A stretch of 25,126 nt of DNA from a virus. Its lineage: Duplodnaviria > Heunggongvirae > Uroviricota > Caudoviricetes. The notes under the pieces are model-generated. The model saw nothing but the letters and a program-made list of their open reading frames with translations. It was not told where the DNA came from and made no database searches. Made by a program: the position numbers and the translations under genes. The DNA is taken from IMG/VR virus record IMGVR_UViG_2740892271_000003. One strand, given 5' to 3'. Below, piece by piece: positions 1 through 8,464 of this stretch. Position 1 is the first letter of the stretch; every line of letters begins with the position of its first letter.

Positions 1-35
1 GAACAGGAGGGACAGCTGATAGAAACAGAAGCCAC
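1..35 (-). CDS. insA: IS1 InsA, N-terminal fragment only (truncated by window edge)
   Basis: Minus-strand translation from the GTG at 33..35 gives (M)ASVSISCPSCS, matching the start of IS1 InsA as I remember it. Confidence 0.6.
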   Translation of the reverse strand, partial: MASVSISCPSC

Positions 36-90
36 TGGAGCACCTCAAAAACACCATCATACACTAAATCAGTAAGTTGGCAGCATCACC
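1..90 (-). mobile_element. IS1 terminal segment (terminal inverted repeat plus start of insA); the element continues beyond the window start
   Basis: The reverse complement of 1..90 reads GGTGATGCTGCCAACTTACTGATTTAGTGTATGATGGTG...GTGGCTTCTGTTTCTATCAGCTGTCCCTCCTGTTC, which I recognise as the IS1 end followed by the InsA N-terminus. The outer end of the element is at position 90. Confidence 0.8.
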
Positions 91-472
91 AGCCTTCTTG
101 AGGCTACCACCTGTTTTCAGGTGTCATTCAGACGTGATTTGCCCCAGATTGGGAAAGCACGCTTTTTTCTCAGCTATCGTCCTCTTATTTTGCCGTTACA
201 TTTCTTTTTGCATTCTAATGATTAATTTACAATAATAATATCGGTAATTATTGAGTAATAATAAATTAATTATTGCAAATGTAATTTAATTCCATCTTCG
301 CGTTATATTCCAATCTTTAATCTCCGCATGGAACAAGTTGCATGCGTGACTATATTAAGACGACTTATAACCACCAAAACATTTGCTTTGCAAGCAAAAA
401 CAGTGACCATTGACTCTAAGAAAATTCCGATCTATTGTTAGGGTCATCAAAGTTACTTAACAGTATTCCGAA

Positions 473-574
473 ATGAAAATACAAAGCAAGCTAATTGTCT
501 TATTAAACATTATTATTGCATTTATATTATTTGAGCTTTTAGCTCAAAAATTTGGTTTGAGTACATTATTTTAA
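473..574 (+). CDS. Possible 33-aa hydrophobic small protein (MKIQSKLIVLLNIIIAFILFELLAQKFGLSTLF); speculative
   Basis: ATG at 473 and TAA at 572..574. A single predicted transmembrane-like helix with a charged N-terminus. No clear Shine-Dalgarno sequence; could be chance in AT-rich DNA. Confidence 0.15.
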   Translation: MKIQSKLIVLLNIIIAFILFELLAQKFGLSTLF

Positions 575-723
575 AGCAAGATAAACAATATCGGGCACTC
601 TAGTTTTTATAATTAACAATTAAACGTCCATAAAATGTTATTTACTTTTCTTCGCTATTGTCATATCTTAATATAGTGGCTTACGCCACTCTACTTTCAT
701 CACATTTTGTACGTTTATGTACT

Positions 724-753
724 CGCCATGAAGCTCTTTCATGGCGATTTTTT
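724..753 (+). terminator. Candidate rho-independent terminator on the plus strand
   Basis: A 9-bp perfect stem (cgccatgaa 724..732 pairing with ttcatggcg 738..746) with a 5-nt loop, followed by a T-run at 748..753. The minus-strand side has no U-tract, so it is unidirectional. Confidence 0.45.
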
Positions 754-839
754 ATTCTTAATCCAAGAACATACTCCCTACCTATAGCAAAATCACTTTT
801 TTAACAAAAGAATAACGTATTTAGGTAATCATTACGAAT

Positions 840-1387
840 TTACCCTATAGGTGCTACTGGCCATTCAATATCCGGTGCAGTTGATGTATCAACACGGTTC
901 AGCAACACCCGATACTTTTTCCAAGCTTCCAGCAACAAGGTTTCTTTCTCCGTTGCGATCTCCAGATCCACAGCATCCTGAAGCGGCGCTATATGCTCAC
1001 TGGCTACCTGCATCAGGCTGTTTTTTGTTTCTTCCGCCTCCCGGATCCGGAACAGTTTTTCTGCTTCCGTATCCTTCACCCAGGCTGTGCCGTTCCACTT
1101 CTGAAACTCCCCTTCCGGGGATAACCAGGTGACATTTTCCGGTAATGAGCCGAGTTCAGAAATAAATAACGCGTCGCCGGAAGCCACGTCATAAACCGTT
1201 TTACCCCGATGATCTTCAACGAGATGCCACGATGACTCATCACTGTTGAAAACAGCCACGAAACCAGCCGGAATATCTGGCGGTGCAATATCGGTACTGT
1301 TTGCAGGCAGACCTGTATGAGGCGGAATATATGCGTCACCTTCACCAATAAATTCATTAGTTCCGGCCAGCAGGTTATAAATTTTTA
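840..1387 (-). CDS. tfa: Tail fibre assembly protein Tfa, 5' end lost in the assembly gap
   Basis: Translation after the X-run ([67 protein letters not shown]...) matches lambda Tfa from about residue 13 onward. Stop codon at 840..842. Confidence 0.9.
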
Positions 1388-1517
1388 NNNNNNNNNNNNN
1401 NNNNNNNNNNNNNNNNNNNNNNNNNNNNNNNNNNNNNNNNNNNNNNNNNNNNNNNNNNNNNNNNNNNNNNNNNNNNNNNNNNNNNNNNNNNNNNNNNNNN
1501 NNNNNNNNNNNNNNNNN
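1388..1517. other. Assembly gap (130 N) covering the stf 3' end and the tfa 5' end
   Basis: A run of n characters in the sequence; it appears as X residues in the ORF track. Confidence 0.99.
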
Positions 1518-4376
1518 GCCACTGGTTAATGAGCCACTGATACCAACCTGATTAGTCCCGCTAACTTGAGTACTCCCTGCCGGAAACATTCCAGTAGGTT
1601 GACTCCCGCTATTCGTTCTGGGCCCAGTCTGACTATGTTGGTGGGCCCCAGCTGAACTTGTAGAGCCGCTCAGACTGTGCGTATGCGCCCCGGTGTTATT
1701 CGTGGATTTAGTGCCGTAATCAAACGACGATGTGGTTTTCGTCCCCAAATCCGTACTGGATGCGCTGGCGCTGTGGGTGTGCGATTTAATGCCATCCTGT
1801 TCCTGAGACAATACGGCACGACCACTGGCGGGCTTGCCCTTAATCGTCCAGCCACGCATATCAGGGATCACGCCTGACGGATAAGCGGCTGCAAGTTTCG
1901 GGTAAGCAGATTTGTCAAAAGTCTGCCCCTGCATCAGGGCATAACCAGACGGAACGGTATCTGATGGCCACGGGATTGGTGCACCGACTGGATAAAACTC
2001 TGCAGGAGGATGAGCCGAGGTGTAAAGCTGCGCCCACGGCGACCAGTTTGCGTCGGTCGTATCCCGTCGTGAACGAATAAATGCCGGAGCATGAGCACCG
2101 CTTGTACCACTCCAGCCGATGAGTAACTCACCTTCGCCAACGGCTGTCATCCCTTTCAGGTGAATGATATTTCCATACGCTGTTGGATATCCGTTGTTAT
2201 ACACCTCGTATAACTCAAGACCTGCTGCCCCCTGCGTATTGTCTGTCAGCGCGGCTACCCGACCTTTTGAAGCCAGATTAACTGATGATACTGCTGTTCC
2301 ACCTGACGGTAGCGCCCCGATCTCTGATGCCGTTGGCTTATTTCTGGAGTTATAGTCCCTTCGCCAGCCAGGTGAATAATCTGTTCCGTGATTAATATAG
2401 GTAAACTGGGCGTTGGTTGTTCCGCCACCGCTGGATGTGGTCGGAGTGGTAATGCGGATCGTCATCGCTGACTTTATCCCCATTACTTCAATGACAGCTC
2501 CGGCGAGATGAATATTACCGCAGCCAGTATCAGTAATGATTTTATTATTGCCATAAGACCAGGAACCCTTGCACATCCAGTATGGATGGTTAAATGCTCC
2601 CTGAGAATCCAGCCACTCGATAAACTGTGCAGTCGTCCAGTTTCCTGTTGTTGTGCTTACTGACCCACCGAAGGCACGGCAGGCACCAATATTTTTCGTA
2701 AAGGTGTCTTTGCCAGGGATATCCGCACCGTTCTGATCTTTCTGCAGACGTTTCTCAGCATTGTCATTGGCTGCTTTTACTGCCTTTGGCGTTGCCGCCA
2801 GCGTTTCAGACGTGCTGTTGGTCGCGCTGCTTAGCTGGATTATCCCTTTCTGTGCTGTCGTTGCATCCTGTGCGGTGTATTTCCCGTTAGCCAGGTCATA
2901 CGCGGCCTTAACGGCTTTTGGTGTTGCCGCCAGTGACTCGGAAGTGCTGTTAGTCGCACTACTGAGCTGTACTATCCCCTTTTTCGTCGTGCTCGCATCC
3001 TCAAGCGCCACGGCGGATGCAATATCCTCTGCCCGTTTTGCCGCTGTCTCAGCGCGCGTTGCTGCAGATTCCGCCGTACTTTTGCTCTGAGCTGCTGCCG
3101 TCGCACTACCAGCAGCCTCTGTCGCCTTCGTGGATGCCGTCGTGGCGCTGCCCTTCGCTGCTGACGCCTGTCTGGTCGCCTCATCTTTTGAAGCAGACGC
3201 CGATGATGCCGATGACGCCGCCGAACTGGCGGACGATGCGGCAGCCGTTTTTGAGGATTCTGCACGGGTTTCCGACGCTTTCGCGTTCGTTTCGGATGTC
3301 TTCGCTGCGGAAGCTGACCTCGCTGCTGCCGTGGCCTGCTCAGTGGCTTCGCCAGCCTTCGTTGTGGCTGTTGAAGCGGATGATGCGGCGCTTTCTGCCG
3401 ATTTTCCGGCGGCGGTGGCACTGGCTGAGGCCTGCCCGGCACTTGTTGACGCGGCGCTGGCAGACGACGCAGCCGCTGTTTTTGAGCCTGCCGCAGCTGA
3501 GGCACTCTGTCCCGCTGCCGTTTCAGAAGACCTGGCGTTCGTCTCGGACGTTTTGGCCGCCTTCGCAGAATTTGCAGCCGCCGTCGCCGAGGAAGCTGCG
3601 CTACTGGCGCTTGATGATGCGTTCGTTTCTGATGATTTTGCCGCCTCTTTTGAAGCCGACGCATCCCGGGCTGAGGTGGCAGCTTCTGACGCTTTCGTGG
3701 TCGCGGTGGATGCAGAAGTGGCTGCTGATTGTTGTGACGCTGCCGCATTCGTTTCTAACGTTTTCGCCGCACCGGCACTGGTAGCCGCCGCGCTTTTTGA
3801 GGACTCTGCAGCGGCAGCACTTTTTGAGGCTTCAGTGGCCTTTGTTGATGCCGTTCCTGCGCTGGAAGACGCTGACTGAGCCGACGAAGCGGCCTGTCCG
3901 GCTGACGTGCTGGCTGCACGTGCTGAATCTGCAGCATCAGTCGCATGGGTTGCCGCCTCACGGGCTGATGTGCTGGCATCGCTGGCTGATTTCTTCGCGG
4001 CTGCCGTGTTCTGTGCCACCGCGGACGCGTTACGCGCCACCTCTTCCACCATCAGCTCAAAACGGCGCAGTGCCTCCGGACGGGCATCATCCTCCGTCAT
4101 GGCACCGAGAAAATCATTCAGCGTACCGGGTCGGGAATCTTCATACACGGTGATGGTCCCGGCATGTGACGGCGGGAATCCTTCCACCAACAGAATAACG
4201 CTGTACTGACCGTACTCAACGTCCATGCTGTAACGCCCGGCTTCATCCGGATTTTCTGAGGCCAGCGTGTTCACCACCACCGTGGTGCTGTTACGTTTTG
4301 CTTTCAGCTGGATTGTGCAGTTCTGTACCGGTTTTCCTGTGCCGTCTTTCAGTACACCTGAAATCTTTACTGCCAT
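1518..4376 (-). CDS. stf: Side tail fibre protein Stf, long form; C-terminus lost in the gap
   Basis: The N-terminus [26 protein letters not shown]... matches lambda Stf. An Ala/Ser-rich low-complexity shaft, the [24 protein letters not shown] motif (two copies) and a His-rich HTHS/HQHS tip region are present. The ATG at 4374..4376 is preferred over the track's GTG at 4382 because it gives the lambda-like start. Confidence 0.9.
2776..2986 (-). repeat. Tandem duplication (two ~80-bp units about 130 bp apart) encoding the conserved tail-fibre motif KGI(V/I)[11 protein letters not shown](S/T)[11 protein letters not shown]
   Basis: Near-identical nucleotide stretches around 2776..2855 and 2907..2986 (ttttggcgttgccgccag...gctgtt.gtcgc.ct.ct.agctg.a.tatcccctt), and the protein motif is repeated in the Stf translation. 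Confidence 0.5.
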
Positions 4377-4383
4377 ATTCACC

Positions 4384-4414
4384 CCACAAAAAAGCCCGCC
4401 TGAACCGGCGGGCT
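4384..4414 (-). terminator. Candidate rho-independent terminator downstream of lom, just upstream of the stf start
   Basis: On the minus strand, the stem gcccgcc/ggcgggc (4394..4400 and 4407..4413) with a 6-nt loop is followed by a U-tract (plus-strand A-run 4388..4393). Confidence 0.5.
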
Positions 4415-4440
4415 GTCATAACACTGTGTTACCTGGCTAA

Positions 4441-4896
4441 TCAGAATTTATAACCGACACCCACGATGAAACCGTCAGTGCGCCAGAGACGTGTTGCTGT
4501 GGCGACCGTCATCACTTCCGGTCAGCACATCGTGCGTTTTCCCCTTATTGTCAGTTACGCGGATATAATCCCCGGAAAAAGTCGACACACGGCTGTAAGC
4601 CACACCCGCCATCGCATACGCGCTGAACCATTCATTCACGCGCACAGGCTGTAACGGGTCAGCTGGCGATTCTTGTCTCCTGCATAGCTGAATGACGTCA
4701 CCAGCCCCAGCGTATCCGTAAACTCATAACGGTATTTCACGTTAATCCCGTTCAGATCATCACTGCCGGGAACGTTGGTCCGGGCATGAAGATACCCCGC
4801 GCTCAGCGTGGACTGATGTTCAGACGCCCATGCAGGCGCACCGGATACGGCCAGGCAAATGGCTGCGGACAAAATGGCTGCACAAACTTTACGCAT
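4441..4896 (-). pseudogene. lom: lom (Ail/Lom-family outer membrane protein) remnant, disrupted by two internal deletions with frameshifts
   Basis: The N-terminal 84 codons (4646..4896, MRKVCAAILSAAICLAVSGAPAWASEHQSTLSAGYLH...NRQLTRYS) hit a stop at 4636. A second frame then encodes PVRVNEWFSAYAMAGVAYSRVSTFSGDYIRVTDNKGKTHDVLTGSDDGRHSNTSLA, and a third frame encodes the family's C-terminal strand WRTDGFIVGVGYKF ending at 4441. The total is about 456 bp, against about 621 bp expected for an intact lambda lom. Confidence 0.7.
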
Positions 4897-4966: not shown

Positions 4967-7900
4967 TCAACGAATACTGATGCCGGAAGCCGCTTTTTTG
5001 GTCACAATCACCGTACAGTCGGTGATATTGCCTGCCCCCTGATTGCCTTTCTGGAAAATCTTAAACTCCAGAGTGACGCTACCACCACCACTAGGCATAT
5101 CAATAACTGCACTGTAACTACCGGGAATGGCCCCTTTAGTTTCTCTGGATGCGATTAATACGCCGTTTTTGCGAACTTCAAAACCATAACCCGTGTATCG
5201 CGTGCCTCCTGGGTTATTTCCGCTCCCCGGATCGTCATACGCTATACCGTTAAAAATAATGGGCGGAATAATAATCTGGCGGTCAAAGTTATGATCATCG
5301 CTTATGGTGACTGTAACCGTCCCGTTTGGTGTTTCCGTGTTACCCCACGTACCAGCCTGTTTCGGAAATGATTTGGATACAGCTTTAACGAAGTCACCTC
5401 TGACCTGAGTCGCCTCCAGCATGCCCTTAATCGTACAGTTTTCATTTACCGTGACATTGTTGAGCGTCCCGGCGTTCGCATTCACACTGCCACTGATATC
5501 CGCATTTTTAGCGGTCAGCTTTCCGTCCGGAGTCAGGGAAAATGCCGATGGATTTCCACCGCTGGTAATGGTGGGGGCCGTCAGGCGTTTCAGGAACACG
5601 TCGTTCATGAATATCTGATCGCCCTGACCAACAAACATCGGTTTTGTGTTGCCATTCGCAGGATTAACCATCGCAATCCTGTCCGCCGCCAGCAGCACCT
5701 GACTCTGCATGCCGTCAGGGGTGTTCTCAATACCGGCACCAATACCCGCGATATAAAGGCGTCCGTCCTGCATCTGCTGCAGCTTCACAGCCCACATGCT
5801 GTTCAGGTTATTATTTGTATCAACCTGAACCTTCTGTATCTGCTGAATTGCCGCACTCTGGTCTTCCAGTTTCTTATTGACGGTCTGCGTGATTTCATTG
5901 CTGACATCCGTAATGGACGTCCTGATTTCAGCCAGGTCAGGCGCAAGCTGACCGTTATCAATCTGCGTCCACAGCTCCTGAGCCAGATGGGTTTTCCCTA
6001 TCTCGCCTTTGAAAAAATCCAGATAACCGGATGCATCATCACTCGGCTGACCAACAGCCTCCACGAATGCCGATTTGCCAACGGTGTTCACACTGCGGAT
6101 ATAAAAGTAATAATCATGGCCCGGTTTGATATTGATACTGGCGGCTATCCAGTACAGCGCCGTGCCAAGATAGCGTGCTGTGGTTTCAACCTGCCTGATA
6201 TCCGCAATCCGCTTTTCCGAGAACCAGAACTCAAACTGTACCGTCGGATCATAAACCGCAAGATGCGGCGTGGCGGTTATCTGAAAATAGCCCGGCGTCA
6301 GCTCAATCCGCGACAGCGCTGCCGGTGCGGCAATCCGGAACGATACCGACGCCGGATCGCCCTGCTGCCCCCACGCATTTACTGCCCGGACTGTCAGCCT
6401 GTAGTTCCCCAGCGCCAGTTGTGTGAAGCGGTAAGTGGTTTCCGTCGTCCGGGCCGTGCTGACCAGCCGCTCACTGCCGTCATCCGCTGTTACGGTCAGA
6501 CGGAGCAGGAAGCTCACGCCCTTCACCACCTTCGGCGTGTCCCAGCGCGCCAGCACCTGATATTCCCCGCTGTCTGCGGTGACTTCGGCAGTCAGGTGCT
6601 GCACCGCTGGCGGCGTGACACCATTCACCGTGCCGCTCTGGTCGCCGTCAAAGTGCGCCCCGTTATCCACGATGGCTTCTTTTTCCGGCACATGCTGCAC
6701 GGCGGTGATGGCATACGTGCCGTCGTCGTTCTCACGGATACTCACGCAGCGGAACAATCGCTGGTGCAGCGTCGGCAGCTTCAGCCCCCACACGCTGTAT
6801 TCAGCAACACCGTCAGGAACACGGCTCACTTTTACCTTCACGCCGTCGGTGACGGACTGGACCTCCACGCTGACCGGATTCCCCTGCCCGTCAACCAGGC
6901 TTATCAGCGTGGTGCCGGAGGATGGCAGCGTGATTTCACGGTCGAGCGTCAGCGTCCGGGTCTGGCTGTTCACCGCCAGCACGCGCCCGCCGGTGCGGAT
7001 ACCGGCATAGTCATCATCGCAGATTTCAATGACATCGCCCGGTACATGACGAAGCCCTTCAGCACCCACGCTGAAATCCACGGTCTGCGTCTCCAGCAGT
7101 TCCGTTTTAATCAGCCACAGCCCGGCGCGGTGTGCCTGCCCCCGGCTGGTACAGCCAAAGGCATCCATCTTCGTGACGTTACGACCGTAACGGACAATGG
7201 CCTGCGTATCCTCCACAAGCTCTGTCGCCGTCTCCCAGCCGTTATCCGGGTCAATCCAGTTCACCTCAACGGCATTATGGCGGTCTTTCAGGGCGCTGAA
7301 ACTGTAGCGGAACGGCGCGCCATCATCCGGCATCACCACATTACTGCGGTTATAGGCCCACACCTTATCCGACTGTCGGTCCTGCACGAACGTCAGCGTC
7401 TGCCCGTTCCATACCGGCATACAGCGCATCGCCGAGCAGAAATCACTGAGCACATCCCACGCCTTGCGCTGTGTGGTCAGCCAGGCATTACAGGTGATGC
7501 GCGGCTCCGTGCTGCCAAAGCCGTCCGGCACCGACTGGTCACAGTACTGGCCGATGACATACAGCGCCCATTTATCCACATCTGCCGCACCAAGACGTTT
7601 CCCCATGCCATAGCGCGGATGGGTCAGCATATCCCACAGACACCAGGCCATGTTGTTGCTGTATGCCGGTTTTAACGTTCCGTCCCAGATACCGCTGTAT
7701 TGCCGCGTCTGCGGATTATAGTTCGACGGCACCTGCAGAATGCGCCCGCGAAGATGATAATTACGGCTCACCTGCTGGCTGCCGAACTGCTCCGAATCCA
7801 CCTGTACGCCGACCAGTGCCGTGTTCGGGTAGCACTGTTTCACATCGATGATTTCGGTGTATGACGACCAGAGCGTTTTGTTCTGCAGCTGGTCTGTGGT

Positions 7901-8464
7901 GCTGTCCGGCGTCATTCTGCGCATCCGGATATTAAACGGGCGCGGCGGCAGGTTATCCACCACCACCGAGGCCAGATACTGCGAGGTGGTTTTGCCCTTA
8001 ATGGTGATGTCTTTTTCCGTCACCCAGCCACCGTTACGCTGTATCTGAACCAGCAGGCGAACTTCAGACGGATTCCTGTCTCCCTTTGAGGTGGTTTCCA
8101 CCAGTGCCTGTACACCGAAGGTAAAACGCAGTCGGTCAATGTTTGCCGACGTGATGGTCCGGGTGATCGGCGTGTCATATTTCACTTCCGTACCCAGCAC
8201 CGTCTCGGAGCCGGAGGATTCAAATCCCTCCGGCGGTGACTGCTCCTGCTCACCTGCCCGGAACACCACCGTGACGCCGGAGATGTTGGTATTCCCCTCA
8301 CTGTCCAGCACCGGCGTACTGTTCAGCAGCACGCTTTTTAATCCATCCACCGGACCTTCAACCGGCCCTTCGCTGATGGCATCGATCACACTCAGCAGCT
8401 GCGTGGACTTCAGGTTGTCCTTCGCTTCGCGCGGGGTATGCCCCTTACTGCTGCCTTTACCCAT
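4967..8464 (-). CDS. J: Central tail fibre / host specificity protein J (tip attachment protein), with a divergent C-terminal region
   Basis: 1165 aa. The N-terminal ~830 aa ([34 protein letters not shown]...) closely match lambda gpJ from memory. The C-terminal third departs from the lambda LamB-binding region. Confidence 0.95.

Follow-up and report, generated by a model that had tools for sequence, protein, structure and literature searches.

The question raised by this locus is whether a 1180-aa open reading frame (ORF) on its minus strand corresponds to a real protein. The window, i.e., the whole stretch of DNA analyzed here (25,126 nt), contains only one run of Ns, located at 1388..1517 and exactly 130 nt long. 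The ORF list places an ORF at 840..4382 (minus strand, GTG start, 1180 aa) that crosses this run as X codons only. Translated from the ATG at 4376, it yields 953 residues of a side tail fibre protein (Stf), 44 X and then a part of Tfa ending in APIG and the stop codon; the two proteins are thus joined by nothing but the X residues of the N-run, as the initial annotation had stated. That annotation had regarded the ORF as an artificial Stf-Tfa fusion, and this is confirmed by a closed public contig with 100% identical flanks (L047), which encodes two ORFs. We consider, with a probability of about 0.93, that the 1180-aa ORF is artefactual, produced by a draft-assembly gap lying over the ordinary stf-tfa pair of a lambda-like prophage.

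The stf and tfa genes flanking the gap

The genes of the minus strand follow the order terminase ... J, lom, stf, tfa. The stf gene sits downstream of J and lom and directly upstream of tfa on the same strand, an arrangement collinear with L003 and with lambda. The features of the locus are the following:

1518..4376, minus strand: 5' part of stf, codons 1-953 (translation; identity to lambda Stf)
3975..4376, minus strand: Stf N-terminal domain, residues 1-134, the tail-attaching end (PF08400 phage_tail_N)
2763..3001, minus strand: PF03406 phage tail fibre repeat, two copies spaced 132 nt (profile search)
1842..1985, minus strand: collar domain, Stf residues 798-845 (PF07484 Collar, E 6e-12; 2XGF alignment)
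1635..1784, minus strand: outgoing half of the HxH (histidine-rich) stem, Stf ~865-914 (phmmer alignment to 2xgf_A, E 3e-84)
1518..1634, minus strand: the larger part of the distal tip subdomain, Stf ~915-953 out of ~915-964 (gp37 counterpart 932-959)
1388..1517, no strand: N-run (unsequenced gap); 258 nt here in closed sequences with identical flanks
840..1387, minus strand: 3' part of tfa, from the second base of codon 12 through codon 193 to the stop codon, 840..842 (PF02413)

The true start of stf is the ATG at 4376, which is also used by the RefSeq relatives, the GTG at 4382 chosen by the ORF finder being located two codons upstream. The assignment of the N-terminal ~950 aa to Stf proved correct for residues 1-953, which match PF08400, PF03406 and PF07484. 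The PF08400 match (E 1.2e-71) covers residues 1-134 and all 134 profile positions. There are two copies of PF03406 in the window vs. one in L001, L002 and L003, and the stf gene differs in length from those of L001 and L002 by 132 nt; the same interval contains the direct repeat D2 (2763-2869 / 2895-3001). The collar domain is equivalent to the first part of domain D10 of T4 gp37, and the outgoing half of the HxH stem corresponds to gp37 882-931, with the motifs HTH, HTH and HQH within residues 866-914. The returning HxH strand and the C-terminal collar strand fall under the Ns and are present in the 258-nt filler of the identical relatives.

By homology, Stf would be a trimeric fibre that docks on the tail by its N-terminal domain, and its Ala/Ser-rich shaft would lead to a gp37-like end, where a collar would be followed by a metal-binding HxH stem and, most distally, by a tip in contact with the receptor. 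The coordination of metal (iron) by the histidines and the trimeric needle fold are suggested by the sequence identity to 2XGF.

The C-terminal part of the ORF had been ascribed to Tfa from about its 13th residue, and it does begin at K13 when compared with lambda Tfa (MAFRMSEQPRTIKIYN...). It matches PF02413 (Caudo_TAP) with E 3.9e-44 over profile positions 1-130 of 131, and its C-terminus matches Mu TfaU (5YVQ). Once completed, the 193-aa Tfa is encoded exactly, as a protein of its own, by at least 1000 public contigs. Homology suggests that Tfa would be a separate chaperone aiding the trimerisation of the fibre end. NCBIfam gave no match for either of the two partial proteins. Downstream of tfa, only AT-rich DNA and IS1 are found.

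The interval between the flanks in closed relatives

Four closed public contigs carry both flanks with 100% identity and have 258 nt between them: L047 is identical to window 1..1387 and 1518..4647, L023 to window 43..1387 and 1518..4647, and L004 and L006 to both flanks. Five further sequences match the flank ends exactly, and the spacing is 258 in 9/9 loci that have exact 28-mers on each side. Flank patterns 245-270 nt apart were matched 7 times in viral_contigs and once in metagenome_contigs, each match being 293 nt long, i.e., a spacing of 258. The filler is moreover the same sequence (0 mismatches) in L001, L002, L004, L006, L023, L033 and L047, where it occupies positions 1388-1645. To judge from these relatives, the real interval between window positions 1387 and 1518 is almost certainly their 258 nt.

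The filler contains Stf codons 954-1027, a TAA that overlaps the tfa ATG (TAATG), tfa codons 1-11 and the first base of codon 12; the closed relatives therefore hold in it both the Stf C-terminus and the Tfa start, the two ends that the gap had been said to hide. In the window, this filler would encode the C-terminal 74 residues of Stf (1027 aa in all), followed by a TAA whose final A would be the A of the tfa ATG, and the first 12 residues of the 193-aa Tfa (MAFRMSEQARTI) would close the missing stretch. The two-gene reading predicts that the sequence across the gap would contain ...GTGAGGCTCGCATAATGGCATTCAG..., and the hidden remainder could be supplied with high confidence from the identical public contigs.

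The two ORFs of L047 are Tfa (840..1421, 193 aa) and Stf (1421..4510, 1029 aa from the GTG or 1027 aa from the ATG), which share one base. Separate stf and tfa genes with this one-base overlap are annotated in L001, L002 and L003 (RefSeq) and in lambda (GenBank), and the TAATG stop/start is seen in L047, L023, L004, L006, L001, L002, L003 and lambda, whereas in the window it falls under the Ns. A closed, continuous in-frame gene, which according to the initial annotation would have meant one real protein, is thus not what the relatives contain: their closed sequences show two genes. The reconstructed 1027-aa Stf has no exact match in the protein collection, even though L047 encodes it; gene callers may have used the GTG start two codons upstream.

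The fusion arises because the N-run is 128 nt short (2 mod 3) and its codons do not count as stops. In the true sequence, the tfa frame would differ from the stf frame, and the 130-N placeholder would slide tfa into the frame of stf; the N codons would then be translated as X, with no stop, so the ORF finder would continue through the gap. If N codons are allowed to pass as sense codons, an ORF finder fuses the flanks of a gap whenever their frames agree, which for an arbitrary gap length is the case one time in three.

It could be argued that the gap size is correct, and that a real 128-nt deletion of the stf end and the tfa start created a genuine in-frame fusion, whose product would probably be non-functional, in effect that of a pseudogene. 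At 130 nt, both parts do share a frame, and there is decay nearby in the same prophage copy, where lom has lost 83 nt in one deletion and 61 nt in another, at 4647/4648, which is specific to the window and may be real or a gap-closing error; since the latter deletion is private, a private deletion in stf/tfa is conceivable in principle. However, we consider this explanation very unlikely. Flank patterns 115-145 nt apart gave 0 matches in viral_contigs and metagenome_contigs, all closed sequences that carry the flanks have 258 nt between them, and a deletion alone would not create an N-run. In addition, the sizes of scaffold gaps are estimates. It is even harder to accept that the Ns are a deliberate base-for-base mask over a real 130-nt sequence: one collection does have some stretches masked as N, but such a mask preserves length, and the sequences with 100% identical flanks have 258 nt, not 130.

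The artefact reading has practical consequences. The correct annotation consists of a partial stf (5' part) and a partial tfa (3' part) flanking a gap whose stated length is untrustworthy. Reading through N-runs in gene tracks generates a chimeric 1180-aa "protein" that would pollute protein databases and host-range predictions. The value of this result lies mainly in annotation quality and not in new biology.

Cause of the gap and location of the fibre tip

Repeats, recombination between fibre cassettes or population heterogeneity had been proposed as the reason for the gap. Only part of this proposal was sustained, as a dispersed repeat is supported, but local repeats and an invertible segment were not found. 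Among 5426 complete E. coli genomes, 3904 contain matches to the filler, at 6716 places in total and at most 6 per genome; therefore, the missing stretch, as a dispersed repeat shared by co-resident prophages, is the likely cause of the gap. Short reads would have been unable to place this repeat, and the scaffolder would have bridged two contigs with an estimated, inaccurate gap size. The first base of the window lies within IS1 and is also the first base of the L047 contig, a signature of draft assembly. The boundaries of the repeat cannot be deduced from the relatives, because the exact-identity blocks in other prophage variants run well past the gap on both sides.

Local repeats or an invertible segment were rejected as the cause because there are no local repeats, the GC content of the filler is 49%, and neither an inverted cassette nor a crossover site is present. 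No meaningful tandem or direct repeats were found around the filler in the closed relative. Within the window, neither the stf end nor tfa is part of an inverted repeat, and there is no match to a Gin/Pin-type (gix-type) crossover site at ≤3 mismatches and no long ORF between tfa and IS1 (94..839), nor a serine invertase gene there.

The gap had also been said to remove the receptor-recognition tip of Stf. The C-terminal end is lost, but, as judged by alignment to the gp37 tip structure (PDB 2XGF), most of the distal tip is still present at 1518..1634. In the fold of T4 gp37, the chain goes out to the tip and then returns, and its C-terminus does not coincide with the distal tip (PMC6957217). 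What is lost to the gap are the last ~11 residues of the tip and, beyond them, the histidine-rich stem on its way back and the final strand of the collar, together with the first 12 residues of Tfa. Similarly, the gap had been located on the most variable part of the locus; since the window retains the greater part of the tip-equivalent segment, the gap sits only partly on the variable segment and mostly on a highly conserved, multi-copy stretch. The tip segment is the sole stretch that aligns poorly with T4 gp37 and lambda Stf, and it is covered by a trough of low conservation (reconstructed positions 1561-1800) among 49 loci, a profile that is indicative only, as the loci were chosen for carrying an exact 28-mer of tfa, and not all of them are full-length. 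Window 1518..1634 is probably the variable, receptor-contacting segment, cut by the gap, and for host-range prediction most of this segment is still readable. The tip subdomain, ~50 aa long vs. 28 aa in T4 gp37, might conceivably specify a receptor different from those of lambda and T4.

The variability of this segment bears on the idea that the Ns reflect real population heterogeneity, i.e., alternative joins generated by recombination of fibre cassettes between co-resident prophages or by an invertible segment. The right edge of the gap lies within the segment that varies between prophages (reconstructed 1561-1800), a recombinase gene adjoins tfa in one relative (L002), and related copies are present several times per genome. 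Nevertheless, such heterogeneity is hardly probable given the lack of a crossover site described above, of any inverted fibre/tfa copy in the window and of a long ORF downstream of tfa. Besides, seven IMG/VR contigs, one metagenome contig and at least two complete genomes are collinear with both flanks, and each of them shows the same simple join. Taken more broadly, a heterogeneous culture with either an exchange of fibre-end cassettes or a private 128-nt deletion fusion, in which the Ns hide alternative joins, has a slightly better but still small chance of being the right explanation.

Comparison with known systems

Several systems share the architecture of this locus to different degrees. 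The invertible segments of Mu (G), P1 (C) and e14 (P), served by Gin, Cin and Pin, also contain the 3' end of a tail fibre gene and a tfa-type gene, but the window lacks an invertase, a crossover site and an alternative cassette in inverted orientation.

The similarity to T4 gp37 is restricted to the tip (2XGF), where collar, stem and tip are nested insertions whose domain limits are taken from PMC6957217. The alignment (E 3e-84) pairs the last 234 residues of the reconstructed protein with chain residues 28-242, and the collar, the HxH motifs and the C-terminal residues are conserved. In contrast, the tip-equivalent segments (~50 aa in Stf and 28 aa in gp37) are unrelated in sequence, the chaperone is a lambda-type Tfa and not gp38, and the remaining fibre is unrelated to gp37.

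A close parallel in organization is the Stf/Tfa pair of lambda (Ur-lambda), which occupies the same position after J and lom and has the same one-base overlap of the stf stop and the tfa start. The N-terminus of the window Stf is 81% identical to ORF-401, the gp37-like end is 70% identical to ORF-314, with the last 28 residues identical, and the completed Tfa is 93% identical to lambda Tfa. Nevertheless, the reconstructed Stf is longer (1027 aa) than the intact lambda Stf, which has 774 aa (PMC7291167). It carries an additional region in its centre and a second PF03406 repeat, and the segment of the tip that lies between the HxH motifs is different in both length and sequence. In lambda PaPa, stf is split by a frameshift, whereas the only disruption of the window stf is the assembly gap.

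Finally, the fibre genes stfR/tfaR (Rac) and stfQ/tfaQ (Qin) of E. coli cryptic prophages match the filler at 92-96%, and the genes of the relatives are named tfaQ/tfaR in RefSeq. The stfR/tfaR and stfQ/tfaQ genes differ from those of the window in being other copies of the same family, and the existence of these copies makes the missing stretch a dispersed repeat. The genes under the artefact are thus ordinary and already known.

The fused reading frame and the two genes beneath it

The window contains a single N-run (1388..1517, exactly 130 nt), and its ORF listing includes a minus-strand ORF of 1180 aa (840..4382) that runs across it. The translation opens VNMAVKISG..., where the ATG at 4376 serves as start codon in lambda and in the RefSeq annotation of the relatives, extends for 953 residues to ...GISGSLTSG, continues with 44 X and closes with ...EWPVAPIG*. 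According to Pfam, the first part is a prophage tail fibre (PF08400 at 1e-71, two PF03406 and PF07484), i.e., the lambda-type side tail fibre protein Stf, and the last part is a tail fibre assembly protein (PF02413 at 4e-44), i.e., the chaperone Tfa, which starts at K13 when set against lambda Tfa (MAFRMSEQPRTIKIYN...). The initial annotation had considered this ORF an artificial Stf-Tfa fusion with Tfa entering at about residue 13; its coordinates for the N-run, the ORF and Tfa were all accurate on re-check, and the artefact call was correct, as relatives with identical flanks carry two separate genes.

When the flanks of the gap were used as query, the best matches in complete E. coli genomes spanned 128 nt more than the query. 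Among them were SCU-111 and SCU-152 (L001 and L002; about 98% identity), and pairwise BLAST aligned the flanks to both right to the gap edges, leaving 258 nt between. A 28-mer adjoining the gap, used as probe, recovered 49 IMG/VR contigs, and the spacing was 258 in 9 of the 9 loci also carrying the exact right-hand 28-mer, L001 and L002 included. Four of these loci share 100% identity with the window on both sides of the gap: the IMG/VR contig L047 over 1..1387 and 1518..4647, L023 over 43..1387 and 1518..4647, and L004 and L006 over their own whole length. The 258-nt filler has no mismatches across L047, L023, L004, L006, L033 and L001, and L002 has the same sequence. A base-for-base N mask would have preserved the length, and the two lengths (130 vs 258 nt) contradict such a reading.

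The stated gap length was tested directly by scanning for flank pairs at two spacings. Flanks 245-270 nt apart gave 7 matches in viral_contigs and 1 in metagenome_contigs, all with a spacing of 258, and flanks 115-145 nt apart gave no match in either set. The latter result argues against a real 128-nt deletion producing a true Stf-Tfa fusion, which moreover would not by itself yield Ns; although the same prophage copy has private decay in lom, we consider such a deletion highly improbable.

With the filler inserted, Stf has 1027 aa, its TAA stop shares the last base with the A of the next ATG (GCATAATGGCA), and Tfa has 193 aa, beginning MAFRMSEQARTI followed by KIYN.... The ORF listing of L047 contains exactly these two genes, 840..1421 (193 aa) and 1421..4510 (1029 aa from GTG), and two genes with the same one-base overlap are annotated by RefSeq/GenBank in L001, L002, the related locus L003 and lambda. 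At least 1000 contigs encode a separate protein with exactly the completed Tfa sequence; the entries from E. coli, Shigella flexneri and Shigella sonnei call it tail fibre assembly protein.

The fusion itself follows from arithmetic on the translated ORF and filler sequences. Because of the TAATG overlap, tfa is one base out of phase with stf in the real sequence; the N-run is 128 nt (2 mod 3) too short, and thus the stf and tfa codons share a phase in window coordinates, the ORF running through the gap because N codons are rendered as X, not as stops. The same fusion arises with any placeholder whose length is 1 mod 3, which is a one-in-three accident. The 1180-aa ORF is not a real feature, and the underlying stf/tfa pair is ordinary and already known. 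In practice, stf and tfa should be annotated as two partial genes and the stated gap length should not be relied on, while the gap can be filled in silico with confidence.

Origin of the gap

The filler has a GC content of 49% and, examined for local tandem or inverted repeats, contains none. Of 5426 complete E. coli genomes, 3904 contain filler-like sequences, 6716 copies in all and at most six per genome, and these copies sit in the stf/tfa pairs of other prophages, e.g., Rac and Qin. The first base of the window lies in IS1 and coincides with the first base of the L047 contig, and over the ~240 nt that follow, further IMG/VR contigs break off; such a pattern is the signature of short-read assemblies breaking in repeats. 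We infer that a dispersed repeat bridged by a scaffolder is the simplest account of the gap: the short repeat probably could not be placed, and the scaffolder would have joined two contigs with an estimated, inaccurate size. The window has no invertase, crossover site or inverted cassette, and therefore an invertible fibre segment is not supported. For heterogeneity of the population at the fibre end, though conceivable, the sequence offers no support.

The part of the fibre under the gap

In T4 gp37, the collar (residues 811-881 and 1010-1026), the stem (882-931 and 960-1009) and the tip (932-959) are each inserted in the one before (PMC6957217), and therefore the chain runs out to the tip and then back. 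The Stf elements were placed by mapping these limits through the alignment of Stf with 2XGF.

Elements of the Stf fibre end according to gp37 mapping (minus strand)
Outgoing stem: residues ~865-914, window 1635..1784
Tip: residues ~915-964, of which 915-953 at window 1518..1634, remainder under the Ns
Returning stem: residues ~965-1010, under the Ns
Final collar strand: residues 1011-1027, under the Ns

Starting at Stf residue 954, the gap conceals ~11 tip residues, the complete returning stem with its four HxH motifs and the last collar strand, as well as Tfa residues 1-12. The tip, which probably contacts the receptor, can thus still be read for the most part. The proposal that the gap removes the Stf tip and the Tfa start holds for the Tfa residues and the few hidden tip residues, not for the bulk of the tip.

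The 49-locus conservation profile, a biased sample and indicative only, is high over the stretch that reaches from the beginning of tfa across the final ~45 codons of Stf (1381-1560, 87-93% identity, in coordinates reconstructed with the filler replacing the N-run), falls to a trough at 1561-1800 and recovers at 1801-2100. On this evidence, the gap (reconstructed 1388-1645) would be about two-thirds conserved and one-third variable sequence, and its supposed position on the most variable part of the locus fits only the smaller portion.

Neighbouring sequences and known systems

The window is occupied by the minus-strand late genes of a lambda-like prophage, from terminase to J, lom, stf and tfa; more than 2000 complete E. 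coli genomes contain prophages that are collinear with it at ~97% identity. Window 1..93 is an IS1 end, annotated IS1A in relatives, separated from the tfa stop by ~750 nt of AT-rich DNA (94..839) with no ORF of at least 60 aa, no annotation in L003 and two imperfect inverted repeats (214-239/509-534 and 336-360/666-690). In 511 complete E. coli genomes, IS1, spacer and tfa are arranged in this way, with ~98% identity.

Within stf, a 132-nt duplication at 2763..3001 creates the second PF03406 repeat (44 extra residues), which L001, L002 and L003 lack. After the lom stop and ahead of the stf start, a GC-rich hairpin with a T-run behind it (4385..4425, minus strand GACAGCCCGCCGGTTCAGGCGGGCTTTTTTGTGGGG) resembles an intrinsic terminator; its conservation extends to lambda and all relatives aligned there. 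The lom gene (4441..4896, minus strand) is a pseudogene that shares with L047 and L023 an 83-nt deletion bounded by the direct repeat CTGGCG. A second deletion, of 61 nt at 4647/4648, is private to the window when compared with its 100%-identical relatives and could be real decay or else an assembly or gap-closing error; the longest lom ORF has 86 aa in the window vs 160 aa in L047 and 199 aa in L001/L003. The central tail fibre J (4967..8464, minus strand) has 1165 aa vs 1132-1137 aa annotated in L001/L003, and its C-terminal receptor-binding part aligns poorly to L003 from ~5641 to 5968.

Compared with lambda, the Stf N-terminus is 81% identical to ORF-401, the C-terminus 70% identical to ORF-314, and Tfa 93% identical to lambda Tfa. 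The T4 gp37 tip crystal structure (2XGF) aligns with the C-terminal 234 residues of the reconstructed Stf (E 3e-84), and Mu TfaU (5YVQ) with the C-terminal part of Tfa (1e-8). Stf would thus be a trimeric fibre, with the N-terminal domain as its docking end and a fibre end made of collar, metal-binding HxH stem and tip, whose folding a separate Tfa would assist. Of 5426 complete E. coli genomes, only 170 match this fibre-end allele over at least 80% of the 840-2300 query. The tip segment is the only part aligning poorly to both T4 and lambda. The gp37 tip has 28 aa vs ~50 aa in Stf between the HxH motifs, and the tip subdomain of lambda Stf differs in sequence. This allele may specify a different receptor.
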